Positions 1,450 through 61,036 of a stretch of DNA of 64,000 nt are shown one piece after another. This stretch comes from Chara braunii. Its lineage: Eukaryota > Plantae > Charophyceae. A program made the position numbers and the translations under genes. The DNA lies in the NCBI GenBank assembly GCA_003427395.1, contig BFEA01000027.1, positions 2,024,015 through 2,088,014 of the forward strand, read 5' to 3'. The notes under the pieces are model-generated. The model made no database searches. It saw only the letters and a program-made list of their open reading frames with translations, and was not told the DNA's origin. Numbering within the stretch: the stretch's first letter is position 1; the number at the start of each line of letters is the position of its first letter.

Positions 1450-2472
1450 TTAAGGTTGATAGACGCGAATTTGCTGTTTTCTTGTCTCTTCCCCCTCTTC
1501 ACCTGTGTACATACATTTTGATTGCGGCTCCGGGCGGTTTGCCCATTCTTATTTCCGTTTCGACTTTCTGAAATCTGGGCTTGGGTTTTTGCTCACACTT
1601 GTCTTTGCTATGTCCGTCCCGATTGCATTATGTGTATGATTATCGAATGAATGGATGTATGAATGTGTGGATGTGTGGACGTTATGCCTGCTTGTATATC
1701 TTTTTGCTAAGAACCTCTGTCCTTGCTTTTTGTTTGTAACAAATTTTTGCCCACACCTGAGGCAGTTGTAGGTGGGACGAGGATCCAGCGCCGATAGCGA
1801 TTTTGTCCTCGTTTTTGCTTATCTCGCGATGGGGGTTGTGATATGGTTGCATCTTGCATAATCCGAAGCAATTACACGATCCGAGGTCTGGCTCCGCGAA
1901 CGCCGCGCGAAAACACGTGTAAACGCGGTCCGAGTCGCGCCCTTACACGCATTCCTGTACGTCGATTCGCCCAACCAAAAAGATTTGCGGCGGAACCGTC
2001 ATCACGTGCGAGCACGCCGAGGCGTCACTGAGTCTGCCTGTCCTGCACCTGCTCATGCGCGGTGACGATATCCCGACCCGAGCTATCCCATCGACGATGA
2101 TACCATGACGCGATCTTGGAGCTCAGACTCGTCCTACGACCCGGACTATTTCACCCCTATGATAAACAAGCTCATAAGGACGTGATACCTCTGTCACACG
2201 GAGAATCGGCTATGTCCGCGGGAATTCCACTGCGCTACCTCTAGCGACCCTCGGTGCTCCGATTTCCCTTCTCCCGACCACACCTACCACTTCACCCACC
2301 CGGGATTTGTTCTCATCACCACCAGTTTCCCTCCTTTCCGCCTTCTTCTCCCGTATCATCAACTCAGTGTTGTTTCGTGGCCGGCCATAGCCCCCTATTG
2401 GCCCAATACATTGTCGACCGGCTGAAGGGGTCTGCCGGCACGCCGTCCGAACCCTATGCCTCGCACCGCATC
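352..2472. mobile_element. Solo LTR of family X, left part (split by the nested Gypsy)
   Basis: Begins TGTGACG; the partner part ends CGTCACA at 20732 (7-bp inverted termini). Flanks TTGT/TTCT are a near-perfect 4-bp TSD. Reverse complement aligns with 61480-63565. Confidence 0.75.
1414..1449. repeat. (GA)n microsatellite in LTR X
   Basis: Direct reading; equivalent to the (CT)n at 62765-62837. Confidence 0.95.
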
Positions 2473-2879
2473 TGTCACCCGTGGGAGGGTTGGTCGGGGC
2501 TCCTGTAACCTGCACAAAACAAGTCAGTCCACATCAACAAATACAAGTATCGTAGCCGACCGTGACCAATGCAAGAAGAAACTCACGAAACATTGTCTGG
2601 CAGAAATAACAGAAGTAGTTTCATTCAATCCAAAACAATAGGATGGGAAACACTCGTCCCGGCCTCAGCCGTACACCTCGCTCCTGTGTCTGGAAAGTCT
2701 GTCTGAGTCCCTACAGACCTAGTCAACAAACGTCGTCTAATCCTCCTCCCAATTAGGTGACGGCTGTAACGCGCTCGTCGATCCCAAGGAGTAGTGCTCG
2801 AACTCTCAGTGTCGGAAGTAGCCTCCCTCGCCCATCGGGGCCAAAGCTCCAGATCCACCGTGACCATAGTTCGGGTGGT

Positions 2880-3600
2880 GCCCCCTCCGAAGGCCTGCTT
2901 CACGAAAGTACCCGCTCGAGAAGCCCCCTTCGGACGTACCCCTTCGGAAAGCCCTCTTCACGAAAGTACCCCCTCGAGAAGCCCCCTTCGGACGTACCCA
3001 TTCGGAAAGCCCGCTTCACGAAAGTACCTCTTCGGGATATTATCCCCCCCTCGGTAAGATGCGGTGAAAGTGTCCGTCTGGTAAAGTACCCGTCCGGTAA
3101 GTGTGTCCGCCCGGTAAAGTATCTGCCCAGTAAGTGTATCCGCCCGGTAAAGTACCCGTCAGGTAAATGTGTCTGCCCAGTAAAGTACCCGTCCGGTAAG
3201 TATGTTCACCCGGTAAAGTACTCGTCAGGTAAAGGTGTCTGACCGGTAAAGTACGTCCAATCGTTAAAAATGGCCGCTCAGTAAAAAGTCTGTTCGGTAA
3301 AACACCCTCTTCGGTAAATGTGTCCCTTCACTAAAATACCCTTCCGCCGAGTGTCCCTCCGGTAGCGTACCCGTTCGGGAAGACAGCCCCCTCCATCGAG
3401 TGTCCCCGTCGAGTGTCCCCGTCGAGTGTCCCTCAGGTAGCGTACCCGTTCGGGAAGAAAGCCCCCTCCGTCGAGTGTCTCCGTCGAGTGTCCCTCAGGT
3501 AGCGTACCCGTTCGGGTAAAAGCCCCCTCCGTCGAGTGCTCTCGTCGAATGTCCCTCCGGTAGCGTACCCGCTCGGGTAAAAAAAAAAACCTCCGTCGAG
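2880..3600. repeat. Tandem minisatellites in LTR (~59-bp, ~30-bp and ~50-60-bp units)
   Basis: Repeated CCCTTCGGAAAGCCC...CACGAAAGTACCC, GGTAAAGTACCCGTC and GAGTGTCCCTCAGGTAGCGTACCCGTTCGGG units. Confidence 0.9.
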
Positions 3601-4039
3601 CCTGGTTCAGATAGCGTCCCTTCACGGGGCCAGACTAGTCTGGTTCCAGTTTTGTCCCAAAAGCCCTGTCTCGTCCCATGTCCCGATCCGCGCCCGATGG
3701 CCCCGGTCCGGTCCGATCTGGTGATCTGCTCCCCGTAACCTGGTTCGGCGAGATGGCCGATCTGTGCCCCGCAGCCCGGTTCTATTCAGAGACCCAAAGC
3801 CGCGTCCAAAGATGCCACCTTGCGTGCTGCCCACACGTTCCAGCTGCTTCCCTGTTCGTATGCCCACAGGCAAGGGGTGGTCGTGCTCAGTCGCGCGTTC
3901 GTGGGCGCGTGAGTGCGCGGTTGGCGCTCGTAGACGAAGGTAGCACCTCTGGGCCACTCTCCTCCTCCATACACTGATGCGCGCCGATGCGCGTAGAATC
4001 CCCTCCCCCGTGGCTCTCTCTCTCTTTCTCCAGCACGCT

Positions 4040-4910
4040 GATGTGCGAGGATGCGTGCTGGGTCCCCGTTGCTCTCTCTCTCCAATGAAGTGATGTGCGC
4101 GGACGCACGCTCGCTCCCCGCGCTCTCTCTCTCGAGTGAACTGATGCGAGCGGATGCACGCAGGATTCCCCTCCCCGAATCCGCTAGTGCGCGGGTGGCC
4201 ATGTTGCCTGTCCGCTGGTGCGCGAGTGCTCCCGCCCTCAGTCCGTTAGTGCGCGTGTCGGCACGCTGCCTGTCCGCATGTGCGCGGGTGCGCCCTCCCC
4301 TAATCCGCTAGTGCGCGGATGGCCGCGCTGCCAATCTCCAAGTGCGCGGGTGCTCCCGCCCTCGGTCCGTGAGTGCGCGGGTGATCGTGCAGCGTGTCCA
4401 CAGGTGCGCAAGTGCCCCCACCCCGAGTTCGCTAGAGCGCGGGTGACCGCGTTGCGTGTCCGCACGTGCGCGGTCGCTCCAGCCCCGGGTCCGCTAGTGC
4501 GAGGGTGACCGCGCTGCGTGTCCACAGGTGGGCGGGTGCTCCCGCCCCGAGTCCGCTAGTGTGCGGGTGACCGCGCTGCGTTTCCACAGGTGCGCGGGTG
4601 CACGTGCGCAGGTGCGTGAGCTGCGTGCCCAATCCGATGGTGCGCGCGTGCCCGCGCACAGGTGCATGAGCTGCGCGCCCGATCCGATAGTGCCCGAGTG
4701 CGCGGGCGGGGTTGCGCGCGGCTGCGCGCACGTGCGCCCGATCCCGACTGTGTGCGGCGAGGTTGCGCGCGGTTGCGCGCGGTTGCGCGCGGTTGCGCGC
4801 GGTTGCGCGCACGTGCGCCCGATCCCGGTTGTGCGCAGCTGCGCGCACGTGCGCCCGATCTCGACTGTGTGCGGACGGGGCTGCGCGCGGCTGCGCACAC
4901 GTGCGCCCGT
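4040..4910. repeat. CpG-rich degenerate tandem repeats in LTR, including a (GGTTGCGCGC)5 run
   Basis: Repeated CCGCTAGTGCGCGGGTGACCGCG units; 10-mer run at ~4761-4810. Confidence 0.9.
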
Positions 4911-5684
4911 GTGTGACTATCCACCTGTGTTACCTGGCTCTCCCCGTTCTTCGTGCGTGGTGCTCCCTCTCTCCTCCGTGCGCCTCCAACTCGTGCATGC
5001 GAGAAGTGTCCCGTGCCTAGGCCCAGTTCGGCTTATATGCTCTGCCGGGCCCTTCTCGGAGTGCAAGCCTTGGTCCTCGTGTGCTCTGTGGCAGCCGACA
5101 ACTTGCAGCGCCCCGGTACCGGGCCTGTGCCCGAGCCTGATTGGGCCTTCGAAAAGTTTCTGGCGAAAAGGGCTTCCCATCGGGAACTGAGCCCTTTGCA
5201 GCGCCCTGGTACCGCAACTGTTCCCGAGCCTGTCCCAGGCCTGCCCGGGCCTATGTGGTTCCCACACAGCTGCGGTGCCTCTCTTAGGGAAAATCCAGGC
5301 TGGGCCCCGTAAGTAAAAAAAAAAAAAACGGTCTCAAATCAATTGGGCCTAGGCGGACCCCTCGCCCTAGCGGAACCGCCCCTTCATAGGAAAATCCAAC
5401 CAGCCGAGTGGCCCCCTTGCCTGTGGCGCCCGCCTGCGTCATGGTCGGTGAGCCCCGGCTAGGTAAAGTAGCCCCCTTGATTGTACCATCGGTCTGCCCC
5501 GGTGTCGGCGAGTGTCGTCTCGTCGCACGATTGGTAAACAGTGGTGACCTCGATGGTCATGGTGTTGGTCTGCCTCATGGTCGGTGAACCCCGACCAGAT
5601 AGAATACTGTCGAGTGGAGTTGTTGTCGCGTGCCCTCTGAAAGGAAGTAAAGGGCGGCGTAGTATTGTAGCCGCCTGACAGCAG

Positions 5685-5804: not shown

Positions 5805-8800
5805 TCATGCTCGAATGCCTTTCTTTTGTTTTTCCTTCCTGTTTGACTTTCTCTTAGTGAGCTTTGTTTTGACGCCTAAGCGTTTGTCTGGTGGAGTACA
5901 TCTAACATGTCGACGATGGTTTTTTGTTTTTTCTATTGTTAGGGCATTTCTGATGACTTGTTTAGCCTTTTTCTTCTTCTCCTTTTTAGTCGCTGCCAAC
6001 TTCTTGATGTCGGACTTCGTGCTCTTGGTGTGTTTCCGTTGGATATGTCGGACCCCTTGGAGTTTGTCTTGTGTCCTTTTTGAAGATCGCCTAGAGGACT
6101 CCGCTACTTGAGAAGTGGTTTGTGCCGTAGTCTCTGTTGTATGTCGATTAGAGGGCTCTCCTACTTCGGAGGTGGTTGGTGGTGTGGGTTCTTCTAAGGG
6201 TTGATCCTTCTTCTTACCTTTTTCTAGGTGCTTATGGACCTCATCCTTTTGCCTGATTTTTCCCGTACGTGGAATAGCCTCTGTTCGGTCTTTAAATATT
6301 TTAAGACGGGCTCCAAACACCGGTTCCTTCCATCTTGTGCCGTCTACTTCCTCTATCAAGTAGTCTCCGCCTTCTAGTCTTTTGACCACTCTATAGGGCC
6401 CCATCCATCTGTTTGCTAGCTTCCCTGTCCATGTTCTCTCTAATGAGGAGTCATAGAGCAGGACGAGGCTCCCTGTAGGTATCCCTTCTTGCCTGACGCA
6501 AAGGTTCCTATCCCATCTTTCTTTCTTTTTCCCTCTTTGGATCTTTAATTTGTCTATGGTGTCTAGGATGTTATCCTGAAGAGTTTCGGCTATTTGTTTG
6601 ATTTTTGCGGCCAACAACTGTTGTCTAGTGGAGATCTCTTCCCGGTCAATCGTTTGCCAAGAGTCGATATGAAATTCTATAGGTAAAGGACAATGGCGTC
6701 CAAACCATAACGTATAGGGCGGGTATCCTGTAGTCGAGCGAACCGTAATGTTATCTGCCCAGACGGCGAATCTCAAATATTTTGGTCAGTTCTTCTTCTT
6801 TCCTTCGCACCATTTAGCGAGCGCGTTGACTAGAGACTGGTGCCCTCATTTTACAGGAGCGTTAGTTTGAGGATGATATGCTGTGGATAGCGACATTCAT
6901 ATTCCCTCTCTTTGGAGCAATTCTTGGACTTCCTTAGCCATAAACTCTGATCCCCTATCCATGACAATTTTTCCAACGCAGCCGTAGCGAATGATATATT
7001 CAGTCAAATAGTCGCTAACTGCTTTACCTGTTTTTTTACGTAGTAGTCATGCCTCCACGAATCCAGTCAAGTCGTCTCTAATGTCCATGATGTAATTCAT
7101 TCCGCCTTCTCCCTTTGACATTTTAACTAGGTCTACGTGCACCTTCTGGCCTATTGTTGTGGGATAGGAACGAAATAAGGGTTCTTTATATTTAACTACC
7201 GCTGTCTTCTGGCATTCCACACATGTCAGACAGTATGATTCTACGTCCTTATATAGGCCGTCCCACCAGTAGAGGTTCCTAATTTTTTCAAAAGTTCCTT
7301 TTACTCCTCTATGTCCTCCGACGATGCCATCGTGAAGTTCCGCTATTATCTCTCGGCGCTCGTCCTCATCACAGACCACTCTCATTAGCATTCCATTTTT
7401 AGGTGGTCTCTTAAAGAGGTGTTCTGCCTTGAGACAATATTGTTGAACTTCCTTCCTAAGCTTGTCATCTAATTCGATTTCTCCTATAAGATAATGCCCT
7501 ATCTTATGGTATTTGCCAATGTATAGATTTTCAAGAAATAAGGAAGTTCCTCCTGCAGCGGACTCTATTTTTAAGGAGCTTATGTCCATTTGTAAAAATT
7601 TGTCAATACCACTAGGCGACCCTAGATCTCCTTCTTCTAGAGGGATTCGCGAGAGACCATCAGCAACTAAGTTCTTAGCTCCGGATATTCGCTCTACTAT
7701 GTAATCAAACATCCTTATATGCATGAACCATCTCGTGACCGTTGAATCTGTCAATGAGAAGTCTTTTTGTAAGACAGCTGCCACTGCCGTCGGATCGACC
7801 CGCAGTATGAATCTTCGCCCGTAAATATAATGTCGAAAAATATTTAAACAATGTAAGACTCCTATAACTTCTTTCTTAAATTGTGAGTAGTTCCTTTCGG
7901 TGACGTTTAAGGTTTTACTTTCGAATCTGAGGGGCCTCTCATTGTCGGCCTGATTCTTTTGAGCTAAGACTCCACCAACAGAGGCAGGTCCCACGTCCGT
8001 ACATACGACGAATGGCCGATTTTTCTCGTCCTCGAAGTAAGGTACCCCAAGAACTTGACCTCCTTCCTTAAACTCATCTTTTAACGTTCTTACTGTATCC
8101 TCTTGTTCACTCGTCTATTGTCATTCTACTCCCTTGCGCAAGAGCTTTCGAAGGGGTTCGACCTTTGCAGCATAGCCTTTTATGAAATTCCTCCAGAATC
8201 CGACAACTCCTAGAAACTGGCGTATGTCAGTAATATGTCTGAGGGGTGTTGGCCATTTCATAAGTTTTTCTAGCTTTGCCGGATTTGGGCGTCTGCCATC
8301 CTTGTCGCAGATGTAACCTAATATCTTTATAGAGGATACCGCTTGTTTTTTATTCCACTGACCGTAAGGTTTGCATCCTCTAACTTCACTAATACTTTCT
8401 TTATATCTTCTGCGCGGGTGGCTACGAACTTTCTCACTCCAGGTCTTACCTCTGTTTCATCTTTGTCGTATGGTCCTTTGATCGGGAAGTCGTCCAGGAA
8501 AACCTCTACCAGATTTGGTATGAGCTCCCCTAAAACGGTGACCATCGCTCTCTGAAAGACAGCGACACCGTTAGCCCATCTCATGAGTACCACCATCATT
8601 TGAACTAAGCTTAATGGTGTATGCATCGCAGTTAGATGTCGATCTCTGTAGTCTAGCGGTATCTCATCATATCCTGAAAAAAAATAGCAGGCTGAATAAA
8701 TCAAACGTCCTGCTGAGCCTTCGGATAGAAGATCCGCGTTTGGGATTGATCCAACGTCTCTCACTGTGACCTTGTTTGTCTTCTGTAAGTCCTGTATCCA

Positions 8801-9319
8801 TCGTAGTTTGCCGTTTGATTTTCTTATGAAGAACCGGCGATTGGCGTAGGCGCTCTCACAAGGTTCCGCTACAAATGTCTTTATCTTCTCCTTCAGGAAG
8901 TCTACTATCATCTTTTTTTCCTTTTGCACACACTTACATTCTGCATCGTTCCATGGAGTGTGAGGGACTGTATAGATTCTTGCAGGTTTAACATATCGTG
9001 GATCTATTCGCCCTCTTTCTGCGTCACAAAAGGTTACTGCCTTGTTGCATGATCTTAATGTTTCTATTATGAGTTCTCTCTCCTTTTGCGTTACGTTTCC
9101 GTCACCTATATCCATTTCCTTTAACCTGTCTTCAGTGATTCTCCGCCCTTCAGTGGCCTTTCGTTCCCGGATCATCTGCGTAATTTCTTCTTCAGTGATC
9201 CTTATTTCCCCGGTCCTATCATGGCTAACCGCGGCTGGCTTGACTTTTTGGGCTACAGTTTTGTATCTCTTTCCCCCGCCGTGTGGGGGAATTCCTCCAA
9301 AAAAGAAAGGTTTATACAT
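5805..9319 (-). pseudogene. pol: Gypsy pol: reverse transcriptase, RNase H, integrase (disrupted)
   Basis: RT FLDD motif and GYDEIPL; RNase H GPASVGGVLAQ...NYSQFKKE...ADGLSR; integrase HHCC (HDGIVGGH...CVEC), VHVDLV, DRGSEF, YHPQTN and the WMGPY module. Frameshift near 8340 and stops at ~7047 and ~6790-6850. Confidence 0.93.
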
Positions 9320-11916
9320 CCACTGAATTCCTTGTCGTCAGCCTCTTTCTCATAAACTGTTCTGTCTACGACATACTTAGTTTCTAGGTCCTCAACGTCA
9401 ATCTTTTTTCCTCTTACTTTATGCGGTCCTAGTGTAAGGTCTTCAGATACTATTTTGCAACTTCTTGTGTTCAGTTGTCCTTTGTTTTGCAATGAGATCT
9501 TGTGACGGTTATCAAATTCATTCACGGTTTTCAAGGTAAGCCTGCTACCTTGAGGTCCATCGATGGTAACCGTCTGACTTCCGTCTCGTTTATTTTCGGT
9601 GGTGGCATTTACCCGTGTCAGCCATGTTCTTCCAAGAATTATTTCTGACGAGCAGTTCTCAACTGTAAAGACGGGCACAGTGACCTCAACTCCAGCAACC
9701 ACTATCTTGGCTTTGTGGCATACCCCGANCNCAGGTTGCTTGAGTTTGTTAGCGGNTATCATGGTCATAGCTACACTCCTGTCTACCTCTAAGCCAAGGT
9801 TTCTGGCCACCTTGTCCTCACAAACGGTGGACTCGGACCCGTCGTCGACTATAGCCTCCATCCCTATGCCATTGACTCTGACATTGAGTTTTGCACTAGC
9901 AAGGACGTAACAGTAGTTGCTTCCGCCTTCACTGGTTTGTACTGGTGTGTCTCCTTCGGTTAGTGCCGTTAGGACTGAGGTTTTCACCTCCTCCTTCTGT
10001 TGTCCAGAAGTTGTCTCTTGTAGCGGTACTTTAGTTTTCCTCATCATGCCTATTAATTCATCCCTTGTCGGGCCACAGCCTGCTATGAATTCCTTGAGGG
10101 TGATAGGAATTGGCATATTCATAGCCCTTCTTAAAGGTTCTCGTAAATCGACTTCGTCTAGCGAGCTTTTAAGGTGGAACTTCTTGGCTGCTCGTTTTCT
10201 AGGGAATTGTGGTGACTTGGGCGACTCAATTTGGTCGTCTGTCATAGGTTGATCTTGATCCTCTTTCTTTGTGTTGCTTGACTCGCCGACCCCGCCGATG
10301 TCGTGGGTACGTACGTAGACTTCTCAATTATTTTCAGCCTCCTCAAACTTAATGGATGAAATTCTTATACCTGGGCTTTCTGGTGGTTCGTCGAAGTCAT
10401 CTTCGAAAGTGACTCGGGAGATTTTGGCTGGTAATTGATCCTCGGATTGCTTACCCTTTGCTTCATTCATCCTCCTCCTTCGGATGTCTACATTAATCTT
10501 CATCGAGGGTAGGAAGGGTACCGGTTTGCCTTCATTTGCCCAAATGACGTATTTTTGATCGTCGAGTTCAATGATCCCTTCTTTTAGTGCATCTAACATT
10601 GCTTGGCAATCTCTTTTGCGGTGGTCTTCGTCTCTGCATTATATACATGCTTTATCATTCCACGTTCGCTTTGGGCTAGGGTCGGTTTTGTCGCGCGTGG
10701 CTTGGACAGAGTTTTCCTCCTTTCTTTGGTTATTACTTTGCAATCTCTCTACTGCCGCATTTAGTACTTTTATCTGTCTTGCCATCTCCTCTTCTCGTCT
10801 GTCTGGTCTTTTTGCTTTTATCTCATCTCTTGGCTTCCACCTGTTATCCTTTGTATTTGACCACTTGGAGGTTCCTCATTCCGCGTCGTTTCTTTTCCAG
10901 TCACTCCTGTTTCCTTTCCTCCATTCGCCCTCATTTTTGGTTGTATCCCCTCTTCTAGGTGAGCTCGCGTAGGTGTCCCTTCCTTCGGTTTTGGGTCTCC
11001 TATCCTCGAATTGCGATTTTCCTCCTCCCTTTTCTGTGGTTACGCCTTTTCCTAGGTTGTCAAGAACCCTCGCGAGGTGTGCTTTCGCGCTTTGGCCTTC
11101 GGTGTCATGGGTTAAAGTTTTGACTTGGCTGAACGTTACCTTAGAGGGAAGATCCCTCATAATCTTGTCTCGCTTTTCTCGAGACAAAAATCCTAGGAAT
11201 ATTCCGCACCTTTCTATTTCGCTCATAAATTCACCTTCTACTAGAGGGTTCGAAGCCTTTTCATATCTCCTTGCGAATGCTACTAGACTCTCATCGTCCT
11301 GTTTTTTTATTTCTTTTAGATCTTCTATTGAATAGGATGTTTCATGCCATGCGAAGATTCTTGTAATCCGTTCTTTGAATATTAACCAACGCCAACTGTC
11401 CGGAATGGCTTCTCTAACTTCGCGATCTATCTTGGGGGTTGTGTGGTGGAGTAGATTTATAATCATCTCCTGATCGCTCCATTCCGCTCTCATCCCCAGT
11501 ACCTCCCAGTCGTCTAAAAATTCTAAAACATTCTTTCATGTGAAGATTGTTTGGATTCCGGACAGTGTCGGTAATTGGAAGGCTTGTGCTCCCAGAAAGG
11601 GGGATATGTAAGAGTCTGGTGCATATGCCATTCTGTAAGGTTGGCTCGTGGTTTCCCTATATGGTTCTCTTGTAACGGGATCCGAGAATCGGGCTACTCT
11701 ATTTTTGTTTATAACGTCTTTCCTCCACCCTTCACTCTTAGAAGTGCGTTCCTCGAGTTCTGTGGCTGTAGTTTCTAACTCTTTTAGGGCCTTGCTCAAA
11801 TTTTTGGCGTCCTTTGTGACATCAGTTGTCATTTTCCTAACTGGGGTGCTCATCCTTGATTCTTGTGTTTTGACTTCGCCGCCTATCGAAGATAGATAGA
11901 CTCCTTCCGCATCCAT
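9253..11916 (-). pseudogene. gag: Gypsy gag + aspartic protease (one frame, several premature stops)
   Basis: ORFs starting 11916, 11493, 10599 and 10245 share one frame. Motifs: F-x-x-KNVLEFLDDWE, zinc knuckle CI*CRDEDHRKRDC (~10605-10650), protease AIVDDGSE. Confidence 0.88.
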
Positions 11917-11925
11917 ATTTTTTTC

Positions 11926-12428
11926 TCACTCTTCCAAAAGTTGATCCAAGGCAACTTTAACTCTTTCCGTCGATTCTTCTAGTAGCTCTTGCAATGTGTT
12001 GAAGTCTTCGTCTTTCCCTTCAGCTTTGACGACTAAGGCGGTAGCTAAAACGGTTTGTAAGTAGCGTGAGTTGGCCTCCAACGTATTTAGGGATATGCCA
12101 TCAACTATTACGTTGGCGAGTTCTCCTAGAGCTCGAGCGTCCTCTCTTAATTTTTCTACAGATGTGGCTATCGTTTCTCTCCAGGTGCGTGGGATTGTTT
12201 GTCCGCTAGGGTTTACAGTGAGGATTTGTATTCTTACGAGAAAAAGCTCTCCTGCAGCGTTCCAGATGACACACTTCCTGACTTCTATTACTGCTTTTGT
12301 GGCGCACTCGTTTTCCTCTTCTTGGCTTAATTGCTCATTATGTACTGCTTCCACCACGACTCGTACTAAGGACCCTTCTGTTTCTGCTCTGCCTGAGATA
12401 CTAAATTTTTGCCTTCTAGGTTCGACAT
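11926..12428 (-). pseudogene. Accessory ORF I, unknown (family beta, paralog of ORF D); 1-nt frameshift near the N-terminus
   Basis: ATG at 12428 overlaps the previous stop (TAATG). Length 503 nt, one short of a codon multiple. Ends 9 nt before the gag ATG. Confidence 0.6.
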
Positions 12429-12948
12429 TAGTCCTTCCTTTGTTTGTTAGTGTCTTCTCGGTCTTGCTTCAGGCGTCTAGCAATGAAATCATTTCGCCAT
12501 CCTATAATGTTCTCCCTTTCTTCTCTATAGATTGCGACAAGACGTTCGATGTTTTTTTCCAGTCTATTTAAGTTGGCTTCGTCCGTAGAACCACGTCATT
12601 CATGGTATTTTGTTAGCGACTCTTCGACCTTCCTCTCAATTGGGTCTAAGTATACTTATAGGATGACATCAATTTTTGGATCTCTTCCCCGTACACGTGT
12701 GTTCGTGCTTCTTGAATTGCCTTTTCCTTCTCTATCTCGCACTTCATCCATCTCTCGACCCAGATTATCACACTGTAGGCTATGCGATTCTATGTTCTAA
12801 CTTGTGCTAGTGTCCTTGGTCTTTCGCGCTGTATAGCTTCTTGTGCTAATCGTCGACAATCTAATGTGTCTAGTGCTCTAGAGGTTTGGATCCGAATAAT
12901 GGAAGTTATAGTCCCTGCGAAGAATACCCGATTCACTTCCTCTTACAT
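12428..12948 (-). pseudogene. Accessory ORF H, unknown helical protein, decayed
   Basis: Protein-like frames (EEVNRVFFAGTITSIIRIQ...; YLDPIERKVEESL...RLEKNIERLVAIY) with stops and a frameshift. Confidence 0.45.
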
Positions 12949-12980
12949 CAGTTACTGCTCCCGGTATTATTGAGTTCGTT

Positions 12981-13409
12981 TTATGCCCTCTTCACTTTCC
13001 ATACGAGGTCTATTACGGCCGACCATTCATTGTTAGCGAGCGTAAGCCCTTCAACTGTTGGTGACGGTATTCCAATGAAAGGCCTAACGTAGGTACTCTA
13101 CGAGAAATTCGTCCTTAATTGTTGGAGTCTTCTCTTCTTGTCATGCACTATGTTCGAGGCCCGTTGCCAACAACGACCTTTTTCGTCTTCCTTAAACCTA
13201 TGTTGCGGCACGTATATTCCCACATTATACTCATCAAGGTTGATGAAGGACTAGGTGATGACATACATACCATCAATCCTCCATCCCTGACTTTTTAGAC
13301 CTTCGTATCTCACGATCTCATATGGGATCACTGCTCTCTTCGATATAGAGTTAAGGGAACGGACCAACTTCCTCGACTTCCCCTCATCTAGTTTCCTACA
13401 CCTCCTCAT
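12981..13409 (-). pseudogene. Accessory ORF G, unknown (family alpha), 142 codons with two internal TAG
   Basis: Manual translation ...IPYEIVRYE...MYVIT*SFINLDEYNVGIYVP...GRCWQRA...; aligns along its length with ORF E. Absent from the ORF track. Confidence 0.75.
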
Positions 13410-13487
13410 CCTTGGTGAAGTCCCCTAGCATGGCTTCTAATTCTGCTCTTGGTCTTGGAAGCGTTCTCTTTCTTGGTCTTCTTTGCA

Positions 13488-13817
13488 CTACTCCTCCACT
13501 GCCCTCACGACTCCAATCAATTTTCCTCTGTCGTCTTTTATCTCGTGCTCACCTTCTACTCCGAACAGGCCTGTGTCAAGGTAGAGTTCCCCTTCTTGAT
13601 CTCGTAGGCAAGAGGCTCCTCTCTTAATCTCTATCAACCCTGTTTCATTAGATCGAACTCTCCTACAGATCGTCGTGCCTAGAGTATACAAGTCCTCCTG
13701 GGTCCATTCTGTCAAAAGTCTGAGCAACTCTTGGGATCTCCACCTATCATGATCACGCTGTCTTAGTTCATTTGATATATCCCCTCCAAGCTGCCTATTC
13801 TCGTTCCCTCTGGTCAT
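13488..13817 (-). CDS. Accessory ORF F, unknown (109 aa; may read through to ~13395)
   Basis: ATG start overlapping the end of ORF E by 23 nt. Confidence 0.55.
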   Translation of the reverse strand: MTRGNENRQLGGDISNELRQRDHDRWRSQELLRLLTEWTQEDLYTLGTTICRRVRSNETGLIEIKRGASCLRDQEGELYLDTGLFGVEGEHEIKDDRGKLIGVVRAVEE

Positions 13818-14307
13818 TCGGGTTATGGTGTCGGTTTATGAAATCAATTATTAAACCTCGACCGATCCCTGTCAATGCTTCGTAAGGAATCCGCGGCCTA
13901 GACAAGTCTTCAAAGATCCTGATTTCGGTACTCCAAGCGACTTCTTTCTTTAAGGAAAGGAGTCTATCCTTCTCGTCCTCCACCACTTCTCTCGCTCTTT
14001 GTCAGCAACGTCCATACGCTAAATCGTCCGATCTTTTCGTTGGTAGGTAAATGCCTACGTCTCTTACCTCAGTCCCTAGGAAGCGCGCGGTCATAACATA
14101 GAGGCGGCTCAGTTCCCATGCGATGTCGACCATCTCATAGGCTTCCACTTCATACGGAAACTCCTCCCTTCTTCCTAGGGTACTCAAGGATGCACACACC
14201 GCATCAAACTTCTCTTGTGGCGGTCGGTTCCCAGCGATGATCTTATTATCCCACTCTTCGAGTTTCTCTGCAGACTTCTTATGCCTTACTCGTTCATGAC
14301 CCAGCAT
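13795..14307 (-). pseudogene. Accessory ORF E, unknown (family alpha), 170 codons with one internal TGA
   Basis: Track ORFs 14002..14331 and 13795..13986 are in frame. GRC*QRA matches GRCWQRA in ORF G. Confidence 0.75.
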
Positions 14308-14324
14308 TCTTTTGCCACGCTTGC

Positions 14325-14594
14325 CTAACACAACCGGGCTCGTTCCCTAACCAGACAATAGTATCTTTTTTCAGAGGTCTTTAGTCTTTCTACCTTCAGT
14401 AGATAACTGATCTCGGTTTGGTTGGTAATTACCCTCAAAGCCGACTCCCTCATACGATCGAAATAAGGTTGTATGAGTTGAAGTTCTTCAAACCCAAAGA
14501 GATCTATATCAGGAATTCGGAGGGTGCCCTCAACTTTTACCATTCTCTCTTCCGCGATAGCCCTGAAGGAGAATTGTTCCCTAAGACCCGGCAT
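14325..14594 (-). CDS. Accessory ORF D, unknown (family beta), 89 aa
   Basis: ATG 1 nt after the ORF C stop (TAGGATG); similar to ORF I. Confidence 0.65.
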   Translation of the reverse strand: MPGLREQFSFRAIAEERMVKVEGTLRIPDIDLFGFEELQLIQPYFDRMRESALRVITNQTEISYLLKVERLKTSEKRYYCLVRERARLC

Positions 14595-14595
14595 C

Positions 14596-15015
14596 CTACT
14601 GACCCCAACTCCTTGCTCTGAGCGTCATATTAATTAAAGGCTCCCAGTTCTTGTCGTCTGTAAAACTGTTAGGTAGACTAGGTTCTGGAACCCCATAGAA
14701 TAGAACCGGTGATGAGTCACTGATTACTTTCTCTCCTCTCCTTTCTAATTCCTTCCTTTCCTGGCTGATGACGGTTTTAATTCAGTTTCTAAACGACGCT
14801 CGTTCAGTTCCCCTCTCACTCAATAGGGGTATATAGGGTCTAATGTCGTATTCCCCTGTATCAAGGTGTTTTACCACAAGGACATGGGCTTTCCCAGGAG
14901 CGTGGCGTTCCTCCATTGATATACAGCTTTCTATTTTGTAAGGAAACGCCCCCCCACTAGTAATAGGGACTAAGGTGTCTAGGGCCGTTGTGACCCTAGG
15001 GCAATAACCTGACAT
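14596..15015 (-). pseudogene. Accessory ORF C, unknown (family alpha), 139 codons with one internal TGA
   Basis: GGAFPYKIES...HVLVVKHLDTGEYDIRPYIP; reads in frame past 14782 to the TAG at 14596; homolog at 59004-59345. Confidence 0.75.
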
Positions 15016-15082
15016 TTTCGATTCGCTATCCTTTTATCGTTACTCTTCTGCGCGTTCGTCCTCACAGGCAGCTTCACCGAGG

Positions 15083-16210
15083 TCACTCTAGGCTCATCCG
15101 GACACCCAGTCGTGACCATCGTCCCTCGACATATTCTTCTATTTCGGTAGCGCTCCTGAAGTACCCCACCCTTTCCTCAAGAAAAGTTGCGACGTCTTCC
15201 CACTCTTCACGGTCGTCGTCCCTTAATCGTTCCCACTCGGCTAGATCCCAATCTTCTTCCCCATAGTATATGTCCTCATCGTTTACTGCCTCTGTCCCTT
15301 CGTAGTATGTCCGGAGTTCGTAGAACCCAATGAGTGAACCTTCCCTAACCGACGAGTCGTATCCAGGAGTCCCGTATAACTCGGCTATACCAGCTAGGTG
15401 GCTCGGCGGCTCCCTCAGGGCTCTATCCAAAGCGGTCCAGAATTCGGCCGATTGATCAAACCTCAGTGCCTCTCTAAGATCTCTAGGTGAAATAGCTCTA
15501 ATTAGCTCTACCAATTCCAAAGTCGACTCCCCGAACCTAGGCCCTTCCTTCCAGAGCGTGTAGTAGGCGTGATCTTCGTCACTGCTCCTCAAAAGGTTTC
15601 TAATCTCGAGGAAAGCTCGGTAGACCTCAATAAGGCGGCCAAGTCCCCCTAGAAATCCTTCCAAGACGAAACCCGGGACGGGCAGCCTCAAAGTTTGTTC
15701 GGGTTGGGGCAAGAACCCTTCTCTAGCCAGTCGAAGCGAGACCACTACCGACCTATAGTCCCTGTCGTAGCAGCGTTCCTTCCCCCTTAGCTTGTCGACC
15801 ACTTCCTGCAGTATGCGTCGCGTTGTTACCTCGTCTGCCCAGGTATGAGAGTCGAGACTCGGAATTACCCCTAAAACCTGATCCCAGCGACTTCGTTGTA
15901 CAGCTTGGAAAACTATGTCCGCTAGAACGGAAGACTGATAGTAGAGGAAGCCTCTGACCGCTAATTCCAGGGATTCTTTTATAAGCCCGCCTCTCCTGTC
16001 GAACTCACACCCTACCTGGGGCGCGACCAGCAACCAGACCCCCGACCTCAACAGGATAGATCTTCACTCCTTATCTACTTTATCCAGATATCCTCACCTA
16101 ACAGCTTGCCCAGGCAAGGTAAATTCCACCCAATCTTCTCCAATGAACTCGGGTTCCCTATAGTCGAAGTGACAAAGCTCAACTGGGTGCTCTATCTCGT
16201 CGTGAGGCAT
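15083..16210 (-). pseudogene. Accessory ORF B, unknown, ~375 aa with acidic C-terminus; two early TGA
   Basis: ATG directly follows the ORF A stop (TAGATG); in frame with the 322-aa track ORF 15083..16051. Confidence 0.7.
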
Positions 16211-16918
16211 CTAGTCGTCCACGGAGCTCCCGTCTAAAATCCGGCCCCTGTTTATCTCCCCACTTGTCTCCGCTCTCCTTACCTCGTCTCTGACCCTAAA
16301 CACGATTCTGCGCAACTGTCTACGCGTGGGAATTGCTCGGTCTAGACAGTAGGTAAGTAACCAGGCTCGCTCGACGGTAGTTATCCTGAACTGCGTCGCC
16401 CTCTGCACTACAGCTCGTAGCCTCTGATGTCTCACCTCATCGCCAAAGACTACTTCTGTGAGGAATCTAGGAACGATAACCGCTCTCACAGACGTAGCTC
16501 TAGGCAGCTCCCAGTCGTACGCAAAATGCACCGTGTAGAAGGCTACCGAGTCGGCTTCACTCCTCTTCACAAACTCACTGAACACTCTCGCACCGAATCT
16601 ACATGCTAATGATGTCAGGCATAAGAGAGTGTGACAATGACGGGCAGTCTCTATCACTAGATACCTCCACTCCTGGTCTGAGAGATATAATCTAACATTC
16701 ACTTCTGCGCGAAGGGGTTCGCTAGCCCTGTCCCTTCTAACACACACTCTAGGCTCCGCCTCAATTCTCACCCACAGGAAGACGCCCTCGCGTATGACTA
16801 GACCTCGTTGTACGGACGACCTATACTTGCTCGATCCTTCCAAAGGAAGACTAATGATGTCACAGAAGCCGCTACGTTCAACGAGATGTATTCGAGACTC
16901 CGATTCGATGTAAACCAT
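16211..16918 (-). CDS. Accessory ORF A, unknown, 235 aa intact
   Basis: Open frame with its ATG 2 nt downstream of a strong 3' splice site (TTTTTTATTTTGCTTAG|GAATG). Confidence 0.75.
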   Translation of the reverse strand: MVYIESESRIHLVERSGFCDIISLPLEGSSKYRSSVQRGLVIREGVFLWVRIEAEPRVCVRRDRASEPLRAEVNVRLYLSDQEWRYLVIETARHCHTLLCLTSLACRFGARVFSEFVKRSEADSVAFYTVHFAYDWELPRATSVRAVIVPRFLTEVVFGDEVRHQRLRAVVQRATQFRITTVERAWLLTYCLDRAIPTRRQLRRIVFRVRDEVRRAETSGEINRGRILDGSSVDD

Positions 16919-17219
16919 TCCTAAGCAAAATAAAAAATGGTTCTCTCTCAGTATGTCACTCCCTGTGCCACTCTCAGACTGTTGAGCTCAAAGACCCCCA
17001 CGACAGGCCTCCTCTGATCACCCCTGTATCCCTTCAAGACGTCAACAGGCCTACAAGAGAACCGCCCTCTGGCGTATCTCTTCCTACCCTCGTGTCAAGA
17101 AGGAGGTCGGATCAATGTGCCATCGTCGCTGGCCTACCTTCCCTGTCGCAACCTGAGCACGAGCCGGCCAACTCATGTGCTCTAGGGTGGACCGAAGTCA
17201 CACGCGAATAGGGAGGCGG

Positions 17220-20200
17220 TGTCTCACTCGCGGGAGGGTCGGTCAGGGCTCCTGTAACCTGCACAAAACAAGTCAGTCCACATCAACAAATACAAGTACC
17301 GTAGCCGACCATGACCAATGCAATAAGAAACTCACGAAACACTGTCTGGCAGAAATAACAGAAGTAGTTTCATTCAATCCAAACCAATAGGATGGGAAAC
17401 ACTCGTCCCGGCCTCAGCCGTACACCTCGCTCCTGTGTCTGGAAAGTCTGTCTAAGTCCCTAGTCAACAAACGTCGTCTAATCCTCCTCCCGATTGGGTG
17501 ACGCCTGTAACGTGCTCGTCGATCCCAAAGAATAGTGCTCGAACTCTCAGTGTCGGAAGTAGCCTCCCTCGCCTATCGAGGCCAAAGCTCCAGATCCACC
17601 GTGACCATAGTTCGGGTGTGCCCCCTCGGAAGGCCTGCTTCACGAAAGTACCCGCTCGAGAAGCCCCCTTCGGACGTACCCCTTCGGAAAGCCCTTTTCA
17701 CGAAAGTACCCCCTCGAGAAGCCCTCTTCGGACGTACCCCTTCGGAAAGCCCGCTTCATGAAAGTACCTCTTCGGGATATTATCCCCCCCTCAGTAAAAT
17801 GCGGCGAAAGTGTCCGTCTGGTAAAGTACCTGTCTGGTAAGTGTGTCCGCTCAGTAAAAATGGCCGCTCGGTAAAACGTCTATTCGGTAAAACACCCTCT
17901 TCGGTAAATGTGTCCCTTCACTAAAATACCCTTCCGTCGAGTGTCCCTCCGGTAGCGTACCCGTTCGGGAAGACAGCCCCCTCCGTCGAGTGTCCCCGTC
18001 GAGTGTCCCTCAGGTAACGTACCCGTTCGGGAAGAAAGCCCCCTCCGTTGAGTGTCCCCGTCGAGTGTCCCTCAGGTAGCGTACCCATTCGGGTAAAAGC
18101 CCCCTCCGTCGACTGCTCCCGTCAAGTGTCCCTCTCGTAGCGTACTCGTTCGGGTAAAAAAAACCCTCCGTCGAGTGTTCCGGTCGAGTGTCCCTCCGGT
18201 AGCGTACCCGCTCGGGTAAAAAAAGTCCCCTCCGTCGAGCCTGGTTCGGATAGCGTCCCTTCACGGGGCCATACTTAGTCTGGTTCTAGTCGATGTCCCA
18301 AAAGCCCTGTCTCGTTCCATGTCCCGATCCGCGCCCGATGGCCCCGGTCCGGTCCGATCTGGTGATCTGCTCCCCATAACCTGGTTCGGCGAGATGGCCG
18401 ATCTGTGCCCCGTAGCCCGGTTCTATTCAGAGACCCAAAGCCGCGTCCAAAGATGCCACCTTGCGTGGTGCCCGGACGTTCCAGCTGCTTCCCTGTTCGT
18501 ATGCCCACAAGCACGGGGTGGCCATGCTCAGTTGCGTGTTCGTGGGCGCATGAGTGCGCGGTAGGCGCTCGTAGTCGAAGGTAGCAAGCACCTCTAGGCC
18601 ACTCTCCTCCTCCATACACTGATGCGCGCCGATGCGCGTAGAATCCCCTCCCCCGTGGCTCTCTCTCTCTCTCCAGCACGCTGATGTGCGCTGGGTCCCC
18701 GCTGCTCTCTCTCTCCAGTGAAGTGATGCGCGCGGACGCACGCAGGCTCCCCGCGCTCTCTCTCTCGAGTGAACTGATGCGCGCGGATGCGCGCAGGATT
18801 CCCGCGCTCTCTCTCTCCAGTAAACTGATGCGCGCGGATGCGCGCAGGATTCCCCTCCCCGAATCCGCTAGTGCGCGAGAGGCCACGCTGCCTGTCCGCT
18901 AGTGTGTGAGTGCTTCCGCCCTCGGTCCGTGAGTGCGCGTGTCGCCCCGCTGCCTGTCCGCAGGTGCGCGGGTGCGCCCTCCCCTAATCCGCTAGTGCGC
19001 GGATGGCCGCGCTGCCAATCTCCAAGTTCGCGGGTGCTCCCGCCCTCGGTCCGTGAGTGCGCGGGTGATCGCACAGCGTGTCCGCAGGTGCGCGAGTGCC
19101 CCCGCCCCGAGTTCACTAGATCGCGGGTGACCGCGCTGCGTGTCCGCAGGTGCGCGGGTGCTCCAGCCCCGGGTTCGCTAGTGCGCAGGTGACCGCGCCG
19201 TGTGTCCGCAGGTGCACGGGTGCTCCCGCCCCGAGTCCGCTAGTGCGCGGGTGACCGCCCTGCGTTTCCGCAGGTGCGTGGGTGCGCACGCACAGGTGCG
19301 TGAGCTGCGCGCCCGATCCGATGGTGCGCGCGTGCGCGCGCGCAGGTGCGTGAGCTGCGCGCCCGATCCGATAGTGCCCGAGTGCGCGGGCGGGGTTGCG
19401 CGCGGCTGCGCGCACGTGCGCCCTTTCCCGACTGTGAGCGGCGAGGTTGCGCGCACATGCGCCCGATCCCAACTGTGCGCAGGCGGGGCTCCGCGCGGCT
19501 GCGCGCACGTGCGCCCGATCCCGACTGTGTGCGGACGGGCAGCCGCGCCCGTGCGCCCGTGCGTGACTATCCACCTGTGTTACCTGGTTCTCCCCGTTCT
19601 TCGTGCGTGGTGCTCCCTCTCTCCTCCGTGCGCCTCCAACTCGTGCATGCGAGAAGTGTCCTGTGCCTGGGCCCGGTTTGGCTTATATGCTCTGTCGGGC
19701 CCTTCTCGGAGTGCAAGCCTTGGTCCTCGTGTGCTCTGTGGCAGCCGACAACTTGCAGCGCCCGGTACCGGGCCTGTGCCTGAGCCTGATTGGGCCTTCG
19801 AAAAGTTCCAGGCGAAAAGGGCCTTCCCATCGGGAACTGGGCCCTTTGCAGCGCCCTGGTACCGCAGCTGTTCCCGAGCCTGTCCCAGGCCTGCCCGGGC
19901 CTATGCGGTTCCCACATAGCAGCGGTGCCGCTCTTAGGGAAAATCCAGGCTGGGCCCCGTAAGTAAAAAAAAAAAAAACGGTCTCGAATCAATTGGGCCG
20001 AGGCGGACCCCTCGCCCTAGCGGAACCGCCCCTTCAAAGGAAAATCCAACCAGCCGAGTGGCCCCCTCGCCCGTGGCGCCCGCCTGCGTCATGGTCGGTG
20101 AACCCCGGCTAGGTAAAGTAGCCCCCTTGATTGTACCATCCGTCTGCCTCGGTGTCGGCGAGTCCTGACCACGCAAAATAACGCCAAAGAGAAATGTCAC

Positions 20201-20386
20201 CATTCTGCCCCTTCGGAGTGTCGTCTCGTCGCACGATCAGTAAACAGTGGTGACCTTGATGGTCATGGTGTTGGTCTGCCTCATGGTCGGTGAACCCCGG
20301 CCAGATAGAATACTGTCGAGTGGAGTTGTTGTCGCGTGCCATCTGAAAGGAAGTAAAGGGCGGCGTAATATTGTAGCCGCCCGACA
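17220..20386 (-). repeat. 5' LTR of the Gypsy element
   Basis: Colinear with 2473-5680; starts TGTCGG on the minus strand; differs by substitutions and repeat copy number. Confidence 0.9.
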
Positions 20387-27914: not shown

Positions 27915-30410
27915 AGAACATTATATCATTTGGTGAACATCTGAAAGCAAGATATGGCTTGTTCGCAATCGACGACGTGGTTCCTTTCCGAGTAGGCGGA
28001 AGGGAGTATCGAATTCACACTGCACACAAAAACAGGCCGTGGTGCTTTAAATGCCAGGTGTATGGCCACCTTCCGTCCGATCCTGATTGTCCCCACCACC
28101 CGGCCAAACGGATCAGATCCACGGGGCAACTGTTACGAGACCCGTTTCAAGCAACACGATGGAGAACAGTCAACCCGGGGCATGAAGGATGGGTCTATGT
28201 GGACGAACCCCAGGAGGGAGGAGGGGTCAAGGAGTGGGAATGGGAGAAAAAGGAGGCGACAAATTTGGCCACTAAGCCACCAGAACAATGGATCCCTCCC
28301 CTGCCTGCGGAGGTTCAGATGGCAGGAAGTTCTAATCCAACCCCCCACTAAGCTCAAGATTTTGCGCCCTCACCAAACAGACGTATTATGGGATAAAGCC
28401 TACATCCACCTCTTCCCACTGCTGGACGAGAGCCCGGCCCTAAAACAGGTACTAGAACGAGGCTTACCTCCGGAAACCAGTTGGCAGCAAACCCTTCACA
28501 GGATATGGGGCATAGTACACGCGAATTTCCTCCCTCCAACTGCACCAAACACAGAACAATCACGAGCCCATGAACCCCCGAATTCCAAGAATCCCGAGGG
28601 AACTGCCGGGCCCTCGCCCCAGCCAGAAGCGGGACAGATTGGGCCGTCTCGGAGGGTCAAGCTGCGTCACCTAATAGAAACAGGACTGTACAGTGAAAAT
28701 CCTCGAAAACGTGACAAGGTGTTGGTGATTCCGCTCAGAAGGAAAGGGGGGAAGTGGGAACTTGATCTCTCACCGGCAGAATCTGAGGACCCATATACCT
28801 TGTCGTATGGAGGGGTCACAATGTTAGGGTGGGATCTGCAGAGGGAAGGAGCCTTAAAAATTCACAAAGTAAGACAATTTATCGCAAAACATTATGAACC
28901 GGGGCTACCGCAACCATCAGTGCGTCTTCGAATAACATAAAAATGGCCTATAAAGACCTGTATGTGAGGTTCGAGGACAGCAAGGATGCGGGCATGCAAT
29001 GGTACACACACACTGCCCTCCTGGATGCCCAACAACAGAAGGTGAGACCCAATCACATCTGGTCGACAGACGAACTTCTCACGCATTTGTGCACAATCCT
29101 GAGGAAAAACATCCTGGGGGGAGGAGTGGATTGGGAGGCGCACGAATGACAAAGACTATAATGACCCCGGGGGGAGACACAGTCACGTCAGGAAAGCCAC
29201 GCAACCAGTATGGATTGGGTTAACACCTTATGTGAGAAAAATGGGAGAGAACACTCCAACACGCCGATATGGATATCAGGTCTACCAATGTAAACAGTCT
29301 GGCATCCCGTTGCCCGAAAAAAAAACAGGCACTATGGGATCTTATGCGGGGGGTGGGAGGCAAGAGGTGGTCGGACATTGTGTGCATTCAAGAAACTCAC
29401 CTGATGGACCTCCCGGAACACCACAGGGCACGAAAACAGGTCTGGCCCTTTCACAACTACCAGGCCCATGCGCTTGGACCAGGGCGGGCGGGGGTAGCAA
29501 TCTGGATCCCCCCTGAGTCGCGGTTTGAAGTCCTCCATTGGGAAAATGATGAGGAGGATGGACGTTGGGTGTCAGTACTTGGTATGCTGAACCTAGAGGT
29601 GATCTGCATTGTATCCCTTTACGCCCCTAACTCCCCCCGCGCAAGGAGAGAATTCCTAGAAAAAATAAAGAGTATCCCTACCCCTGATACCCCTGATATT
29701 CCGGTGGTGCTTGCAGGGGATTTTAATACAGCACCTGACCGGGGATTGGACAGATGGAGAACCCAGCCGACCACGATCCATAACGGTGAAGAAGACGAAA
29801 AAATGTTAGGGGAGTTATGCTCCTCCCTCCAACTATTTGATACATTCCGATGTAGTTACCCTACCGAAAGAACCTTTACCTGCATTAGGAGCAATGACCC
29901 GGGTAGGCGCTCCTAGTCCCGGATCGATCAGATATTGGCCTCGGAGGACCTCCTGGCTGGATTGACAGTAACCGCAATACTACCAATGAGCCCATACCCC
30001 GGTCCAGATCATGGAATGTGCATGGCTATCTGGACTTTCCGCAAGCGTCCGGACCAAGGGATCAGCTATTATAAGTTTAACACTTCCCTACTTAAGCTGA
30101 AACCCTTCCGAAGCTATTTACGAAAAAACTGGGAATATTGGAAGGACGGACGCCATCATCACGACTCCCAAATTGCATGGTTCAACAATGGACTGTTATT
30201 TCTGGCAAGGAAAAGCAACGAGTTCTCTAAACATTTGGCCGCTCAACGACATTAACAAGAAATTTCGATAATGCGAGATCTGGAGGAACTAGAGCAGCAG
30301 GCAAATTTGCATGAACAGGAACATATAACCACGACACAAGAACTAAAAGAACGTAAAGAACTTAAAAAACAACTTTTGAACTTTGCAAGCCACCGATGGC
30401 TCCAATATGC
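27915..30410 (+). mobile_element. L1-like LINE 5' half: ORF1 (zinc knuckle, C-terminal domain) and ORF2 APE endonuclease
   Basis: WCFKCQVYGH..C knuckle; STNVNSL, CIQETHL, GVAI, YAP, GDFN, RID and DH endonuclease motifs (29269-30030). Confidence 0.9.
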
Positions 30411-47451: not shown

Positions 47452-47673
47452 AACGTCCACCCGGTCTTTCGTTGTTCAAAGTTGGCTCTTTTTGTTTCGG
47501 CAGAATGCGCCGAGTTTCCCGGGCGACGATCGCAAGACCCACGCTCCATGGACAGTTTTCAGGAGGTTAGCGACATCATCTCGCAGCGGCGCTACAGCAC
47601 CAAGCCGACGGAGTACTTAGTACACTTTTCCTATTGTAGCCATAAGGCTGACCGTTGGTTGACCCGTGCTGAG
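47452..47673 (+). mobile_element. Chromoviral Gypsy integrase C-terminus/chromodomain relic
   Basis: VHPVFRCSKL (end of GPY/F module) followed by EVSDIISQRRY...EYLVHF...DRW. Confidence 0.75.
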
Positions 47674-58591: not shown

Positions 58592-59003
58592 CACATAAAA
58601 CATTGAAAGGATATATATTCAACAATTGATGAGCTTCATCGATGACATGGGTTGCTCAAATGCTTACTCAGAATACACACGTGCAAGGGGAATAAAACAA
58701 TGATATTTTATACCGGTTGAAGTTATGAAAAATGAAAGTTAAAAAACACATGAATTTTTAAAGTGCGAAATAAGTCCAATGTGAGGTTATAATGAAGGAG
58801 ACAACGATCATGAACAGAATATTGTGTGTTGAATGTAATAACGTTTTTGAGGTTTCAAGAATTCATTTTTTTTATTTTTTTTTTGCGTGTTGTGCAAATA
58901 TCAATTTTGAAAAATCAATCTCATTTTGAATTTTCACGCTCGATGTTAGCATGTACGAGTGGGTGAATCAACATAGTTTGTTTTTGTACCTTATAAACCA
59001 ATG

Positions 59004-59345
59004 ATGAATGTCACTCCCGTTGCAGTGTCAGCAGGGGCAGCGATTACCACAACCGGAGGAGCATTTCCATACAAATACGAGTCAATAGTGATATGTGAAC
59101 TGCGTGGATGCAATTTGTTTGTAGTTGTCGTAAAGTTTATGAATATCGACATATATGACGTGCACATTTATAGATGACAGAGACAAATGAGACAAGAGAA
59201 CGATTACGCAGAATGTCATCAAACAACTTTGCAAGCCCACGAAGAAAAAAAAACAGCACTGAAGCGAGAGGGCAGAAGACTTGAAGGATGGTCGACTTTC
59301 ACAACTGAGTTTCAGAGCATGTTTGTTCCACCTATCCCGAGGTGA
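59004..59345 (+). pseudogene. Family alpha homolog (related to Gypsy accessory ORF C)
   Basis: ITTTGGAFPYKYESIVICELRGCNLFVVVVKFMNIDIYDVHIY aligns with ORF C ITSGGAFPYKIES...VLVVKHLDTGEYDIRPY. Confidence 0.75.
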
Positions 59346-61036
59346 ATGTTAGAGGGCTCACACAAAGCGACCATGTGGATTCCCATCATGAATGTAGTCA
59401 ATCAGATTCATGGGTAATGGGAAAGCAGGGTAATGTTAAGTGGTGGACGAGGAGTCATGTTGAAATACATTGTATATTGTATAGCAATATGAAACAATTT
59501 TAAGTTTTGTACTTATATACACTGTATTTATTGTAACAAACTCGTAGAAATATGACCAAGATTCACCATTTCACAAGAAAGACAAAAAGGTAAAAAACAA
59601 AACGGTGTGCATTTACATGTATGAAAAGGGTTGGCATCGAATGTATGCAGCTATTTATAGGCATAGAGACATATTATTTTTTGTTTTTTTTTTACGACGA
59701 TGATTGAAAAAAAGGTACATCGAGATACTTTTTTGTATTAGGCATATGATTATATGCCCAAATGATGTTGTTTTTATAATATATTACAAAAACTTGCTGT
59801 GAATTAAGCGAATAATAAATCCACGGTGCTTTTCTTATACATTGTCCCACAAATTTCGACAATATAGTATAAAAATTTGTTAAATTTAAAAAAAAAAAAA
59901 AATCATCAAATATGAACATACGTGCACTTGAAAAACAAAACCCCATAGCAAAAGCATAGATTACAAGCGAATGTCGAGTCAGTTTCATTATATTTCCCGG
60001 TAAATTCAATGAATGGTATCATATAAATAATGTGATAGTTAAATTGCTTGAGAACGGAAAAAGTTTAAAAAAAAACACTTTCAAATTTCAATTTCGTTCA
60101 AAAAATAAAAAATGTCCGTTGTGACGAAATCGTTGTTGAGTCAGAACGCACATCATCAGTTAGACTATATTCGGAGTCGGAAGTAGATTCCATAACCGCA
60201 TATGATTCGTCTACATCTAAATTGTCCAGGGGAACTCCATCCTCGGCTCTCTCGGGTTGATCCTTCTGATTATGGTCGACTGGAGGTCCCAAATGAGAAG
60301 GGGTGGGGAACTCGTCTTCCCTTTATCGCCCAGGCCATCCGCCGTGTGTTGTTCGGAAGGTTTCTCATGGGGGTGCTTAGGGGGGGTTTTAGGAAACTTT
60401 TAAAGGGATTTTTCAGAGGGGGGTTTGAGGGGTCTTCTTCGAGGATTTTTCTGAGGGTTCCGATGGACTAGGAGCTTTAGGTGGGGAGTCTCTTTTTTCT
60501 TTGTTTTTGTCGTTCGAAGGTTTGTCTTGGGGTTCGATTTAACAGCTTTAGTGTATGATCTCTTCTTTTTGAGTCATTCCTCATCCTCTTTTGAATGAAA
60601 GTGACGACGACATACCTGACACCACAGGGTTGTTGCACAAACAACCTCAATCGCAACCTCTGCACGGGGGCCCAGGTCTACCAACAGGTAGCGCTTGTAT
60701 TTGAGCCTTGCCGCTGACTCGAGGTCAAAGCGCACATTCATGAGATGGGGGCACTTCCTATCTGAATAGGCAGGATACTTCTTAATTAACGTTGTCCCAT
60801 ATGTATCCTCGATTATGCCCAGGATAGGGGCTAGGGCTGCAATTTGTCCCTGGAGCAGATTTGTCCGGAAGAATTCCTTCCGTATAATATTGGCTTAGGA
60901 TGCCTCCAACTCGCTGTTTTCTTCCTCTGTTATAGAGGAGGATGTCTGTGAAGCCATGGTACATCAACCTTTGTGACCTACTAGGATGTAACTCCTATAT
61001 AAGCTACCGAAATCCAATACCATAATATTTTAACTA

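Follow-up and report, generated by a model that had tools for sequence, protein, structure and literature searches.

The locus considered here raises the question of what three short reading frames, set among small ORFs ahead of the gag position of a retrotransposon that is likely one of Chara, encode and why the element carries them. An earlier note on the window (the whole stretch of 64,000 nucleotides that was analysed) had taken frames C, E and G for one protein family, here called alpha, in three copies. All three frames lie on the minus strand where that note had put them, and the peptides it quoted agree with the translations (Table 1). Homology was assessed by Smith-Waterman alignment with 1000 shuffles per pair, internal stops being read as X. 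E and G align with a score of 176 (39 of 118 positions identical, z 33) and C and G with a score of 67 (z 10.1), neither of which was reached by any shuffle; the C-E score of 59 (z 6.8) was reached by one shuffle in 1000. The scores of all three pairs thus exceed all, or all but one, of the shuffled controls, and the proposed triplication is borne out. Among the 36 pairs formed by nine ORFs, the six that involve C, E, G and a further copy at 59 kb gave z values of 6.8 to 33, and the other 30 gave 2.6 or less. Membership of C follows from a profile comparison of E/G-type with C-type sequences (probability 99.3%, E 5e-20, 119 columns). At the DNA level, blastn of E against G and C gave nothing better than E 0.6, so that the protein is conserved despite diverged DNA, as the note had also claimed. 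Identity between E and G at the three codon positions is 0.47, 0.64 and 0.27. A six-frame profile scan of the window revealed no fifth copy.

Table 1. Features of the retrotransposon and of the alpha copies, in positions of the window
Feature	Position	Strand	Basis or remark
5′ LTR, ~3.2 kb	17224..20386	-	self-blastn vs 2475-5680; exact ends approximate
ORF A, 235 aa, open, no family	16211..16918	-	Pfam, PDB
ORF B, 375 aa, 2 internal stops, acidic, no family	15083..16210	-	ATG directly after the stop of A
ORF C, alpha paralogue 1, 139 aa, 1 internal stop	14596..15015	-	alignment and profile comparison
ORF D, 89 aa, unrelated to alpha, no family	14325..14594	-	shuffles, Pfam
ORF E, alpha paralogue 2, 170 aa, 1 internal stop, pI 5.9	13795..14307	-	alignment
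ORF F, 126 aa, 1 internal stop, unrelated to alpha	13437..13817	-	overlaps the end of E by 23 nt
ORF G, alpha paralogue 3, 142 aa, 2 internal stops, pI 10.1	12981..13409	-	alignment
Broken reading region H with likely gag	10324..13002	-	gag by position; starts 22 nt inside the end of G
Broken pol: protease, RT, RNase H, integrase	5805..10323	-	Pfam
3′ LTR	2475..5680	-	self-blastn; in sense, a G-rich polypurine-like tract precedes
Fourth alpha copy, 137 aa, 2 internal stops	59004..59417	+	outside the LTR element; z 10.8-15.6 vs C, E, G

The carrier is a Ty3/gypsy LTR retrotransposon of about 18 kb. Its two long direct terminal repeats are identical in 2814 of 2991 aligned columns and enclose protease, RT, RNase H and integrase in this order. 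Pfam matches in pol are Asp_protease_2 (5e-8), RVT_1 (4e-5), RT_RNaseH (3e-21), Integrase_H2C2 (3e-20) and rve (1e-7). The copy in the window is decayed. No gag domain was matched by Pfam in the gag-position frame, and no clear primer-binding site or target-site duplication was seen around an inner LTR end that is itself uncertain. The 5′ LTR holds at least five tandem-repeat arrays, with periods of about 58, 62, 51, 62/31 and 50-52 nt. Many sister contigs run past the inner end of this LTR into sequence like the flank of the 3′ LTR (window 2250-2475 and 17000-17224). The LTR could therefore extend further than given here, or the 3′ LTR could be the start of a second, truncated element.

Between the 5′ LTR and the gag-position frame lie seven sense ORFs, A to G, which make 97.2% of 3.9 kb coding. 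From A through H the junctions measure, in order, 0, 67, 1, 17, -23, 27 and -22 nt. Stops number 7 among the 1276 codons of the called frames and 195 among the 2552 of the remaining two sense frames; since the called frames were chosen for openness, part of this contrast is circular. ORFs A and B (window 15083-16918, minus strand) are without a match in Pfam or the PDB. Within the 4217 nt ahead of H there are 49 ATGs, and therefore plain scanning could not reach the gag-side frame. At the start of frame H (window 12945), the sequence differs in length by one base from most sister contigs. Translation through such a polycistronic leader would proceed by stop and restart or from shorter RNAs. 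RNA reads are scarce and say nothing on translation: three runs gave 14, 244 and 20 reads over a 10.6-kb stretch, and over positions 12900-15100 one run gave 46 from both strands, none of them 99% alike. A similar arrangement is described for the MDG1 group (Drosophila 412 and Stalker2), where the RNAs translated for sORF1 and sORF2, two small sense ORFs upstream of gag that are under purifying selection, are either unspliced or shortened (bioRxiv 10.1101/2025.03.14.642691). The Chara cassette likewise has small constrained sense ORFs before gag. However, the two MDG1 ORFs are unrelated to each other, and one of them, sORF2, encodes a membrane protein; no hydrophobic segment is present in C, E or G.

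Extra ORFs are also known from plant elements, mostly as single genes of unknown function. Ogre is described with LTRs of 1.9-6.5 kb and one or two extra ORFs (PMC6431247), and additional ORFs of plant gypsy elements are reported upstream or downstream of gag-pol (PMC7264820). Ogre, Retand and Grande resemble the Chara element as long-LTR gypsy elements with conserved extra ORFs of unknown function; their extra ORFs were compared with the cassette through Pfam only, and no match was found. In most of the reviewed plant cases there are one or two such ORFs, and their usual place is after pol and before the 3′ LTR, whereas the Chara cassette has seven sense ORFs ahead of gag, three of them paralogous. 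It is well supported that a protein matching no family occurs in three copies within an accessory cassette of unusual size; the retrotransposon that carries it is likely one of Chara. A near-gapless cassette of seven genes before gag poses the question of how a eukaryotic RNA that contains it can be translated. Our literature search found no paper on the cassette or the alpha domain; the supplements of the Chara genome, Repbase and REXdb may hold the family as a consensus.

To judge age and selection, sister copies were compared. The sister contig L001 (1164 nt) carries, in this order, the last part of a C-like gene, an E-like gene, a G-like gene and sequence resembling the start of H, and has no room for D or F. 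Window G and its L001 counterpart share 65% amino acid identity (pN 0.19, pS 0.74); for E the values are 41%, 0.41 and 0.75. In the tree, E and G types are joined with support of 97/93 and window G groups with L001 G at 100/100. Nine of the 14 inner branches are open; the E-slot sequences are not united in one supported clade, nor does any supported branch unite the C type. The isoelectric points of the slots agree in the two elements compared, being 5.9 and 5.8 for E and 10.1 and 9.7 for G (window and L001, respectively). Contigs from three runs of one sample together span the whole cassette. Each of the four internal stops of C, E and G differs in 88-100% of the aligned contig depth in these runs, so most sister copies lack them, with the reservation that depth is not copy number. 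The claim of old duplications under selection thus stands, with dN far below dS within the slots and stops rare among the sisters. The likeness to a diversifying viral effector array gains no support: the signal measured is purifying, the searches described below turned up no viral relative, and it is an LTR retrotransposon that carries the genes.

What the proteins might do was approached through a structure model of alpha (pLDDT 82, pTM 0.75), according to which C, E and G are each predicted to form one small soluble alpha/beta domain. The model is globular, and hydropathy indicated no transmembrane segment of the env or sORF2 kind in C, E or G (highest 19-residue value 0.68-0.78). In a 14-row alignment the sole invariant column is a Tyr, the conserved positions belong mostly to the hydrophobic core, and no invariant acidic or His set is present. 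A nearly invariant Asp-x-Arg-x-Tyr motif lies on one strand and could be an active site. Alpha also has a motif likeness to the ssDNA-binding domain of PC4/Sub1, for which Pfam gave no match in alpha. The PC4 and PD-(D/E)XK folds were not among the leading structural rows, which does not exclude them. Foldseek against the PDB and BFVD gave nothing at E 0.001, and Atlas feature searches nothing at 0.9. The explanation that we favour, and consider moderately probable, takes C, E and G for extra genes of this Ty3/gypsy family that were duplicated in tandem long ago and kept by purifying selection, and their products for binding proteins that serve the element. Because conservation is mostly of core residues and a membrane segment is absent, we infer that the proteins likely bind host or element molecules non-catalytically and thereby help the element to replicate. 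The conserved order and the difference in charge between the acidic E and the basic G slot suggest that the three slots likely serve different partners. CERV of the C. elegans element Cer1, a novel LTR-element accessory protein described as aiding RNA export (PMC10309623), is a precedent for such a binding role, but it is a single spliced gene and is likened to alpha by description.

Relatives were sought in several collections. HMMER over 1.84 billion representatives returned ten matches, nine of which were kept: four named ones, all gene models of Chara braunii, and five short contigs with stop-free ORFs. The assignment of the element to Chara is based on those four names. The tenth, a fish trichohyalin-like repeat (P0014, E 5e-4), matched a helix only and was dropped as a coiled-coil artefact. 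Two further stop-free alpha proteins were found on short contigs beyond these nine. The stop-free homologues are P0005-P0008, P0010, P0015 and P0016; C is 40% identical to the intact P0006 and E 42% identical to the intact P0005. Word-indexed searches with E and with a four-row alignment gave no match, and a third such search gave three proteins. Pattern searches, which reach close relatives only, found none in viral contigs (queries A4 and A5), GTDB genomes (A4 only), plasmids (P0006) or phages (P0005; three matches at E 5-9). PDB sequences gave no match with A2 and four helix-only matches at E 0.15-1.6 with A6. No meaningful match was obtained in PHROGs (best E 0.04), NCBIfam or Pfam; the alpha profile fits no characterised TE domain in Pfam.

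Two of the Chara gene models fuse alpha to RT pieces and one to a Mutator-like transposase match (E 0.0016, below the cut-off); automatic models that join alpha to transposon pieces may be chimeric. The gene models P0012 and P0013 have a common segment upstream of alpha that also matches window positions 56906-57142 (E 0.005 and 6e-6), about 2 kb before the copy at 59 kb. Because of this common segment, it seems likely that the 59-kb copy belongs to a second kind of carrier. As a point against the favoured explanation, this copy outside an LTR context and the gene model with the weak Mutator-like match show that alpha does not depend on the life cycle of LTR elements. The 59-kb copy and P0012 hint at one accessory family across element types, as with the bdelloid ORF3 genes, which are described as common to LTR and Penelope-like elements (PMC5408684). 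In contrast, bdelloid ORF3 genes encode recognisable enzymes downstream of pol, and the second carrier of alpha is a tentative one. The region 56900-59417 (plus strand) is AT-rich, and no terminal inverted repeats stood out in it. Positions 56369-56470 (minus strand) match residues 1-32 at the N-terminus of the gene model P0009 (E 0.001), whose following segment looks Nudix-like. The window also contains two related LINE-type elements (28713-30245 and 36119-37637, plus strand; 65% DNA identity), whose APE endonuclease domains resemble LINE-1 EN. An ORF at 46967-48255 (plus strand) with weak Tudor-knot/chromodomain (E 0.0016) and HTH_21 matches perhaps belongs to another element.

The favoured binder explanation can be made more specific in several ways. 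Alpha proteins might be anti-silencing DNA binders that recognise tandem-repeat motifs of the LTR and lift methylation, as VANC proteins of VANDAL Mutator elements do. VANC are described as accessory proteins that bind tandem repeats, their targets lying in TE non-coding regions (PMC5735166, PMC12859917). We regard this as a minor but serious possibility. The tandem arrays of the LTR, the basic G slot and the gene model with the Mutator-like match fit it, and both systems have TE-encoded accessory proteins beside non-coding DNA rich in tandem repeats. On the other hand, no member matched DUF1985 or DUF287 (Pfam, E 10), the C and E slots are neutral or acidic, and no DNA-binding fold is among the top structural rows. 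Alpha further differs from VANC in being one small domain with an LTR carrier. Unlikely in our view is a bolder combination: a virus-like polycistronic operon ahead of gag, whose triplicated effectors, of gelsolin fold or wholly new fold, would take over some host machinery, for instance the actin cables behind streaming in the giant cells of Chara, and be common to a second, unrelated transposon class. That alpha proteins are single-domain gelsolin-like actin binders, moving or anchoring element particles on host actin cables, is another specific form of the binder explanation; we hold it to be quite unlikely, and no gelsolin-like repeat was matched by Pfam or PDB sequences at E 10.

That alpha is what remains of an enzyme fold (one half of an EEP/LINE endonuclease, or of a GNAT the first half) and was put to new use, whether still active or not, is also quite unlikely. 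All Atlas rows fall below the bar for naming a family, with models of pLDDT 0.45-0.56. Profile comparison gave 1.1% against the two LINE endonucleases of the window and 0.1% against five EEP proteins, no better than 96 decoys, and hhalign against 22 E. coli GNATs gave a score of 9.4 (shuffled mean 8.8); these tests used shallow targets and have low power, and the GNAT and EEP comparisons had no positive control at a like distance. Alpha is a domain of 130 aa and not the full domain of about 230 aa with the catalytic motifs of EEP/APE. The conserved glycines that follow the third strand in GNATs, and with them a glycine-rich CoA loop, were not found in the 14-row alignment. It is highly improbable that the frames are a neutral passenger, sequence that was duplicated or captured and does nothing for the element: the window copy is broken, RNA support is slight and single sister contigs skip parts of the cassette (D and F in L001), but dN lies far below dS, the order is conserved and stops are rare among the sisters.

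As a constrained and triplicated domain without a family, alpha offers a handle on transposon-host dealings in the algal sisters of land plants, and stop-free natural homologues together with a confident model make it testable now. A separate observation concerns base changes. Over positions 12900-15100, the window copy departs from most sister contigs by transitions that are strand-biased: run X1 showed 39 of one type and 3 of its complement (binomial p 2e-6, base composition taken into account). The 27 sites listed were not preferentially CG or CHG. The biased transitions could reflect editing during reverse transcription or a threshold effect of the tool. Between the two LTRs, transitions are balanced (64 vs 62).
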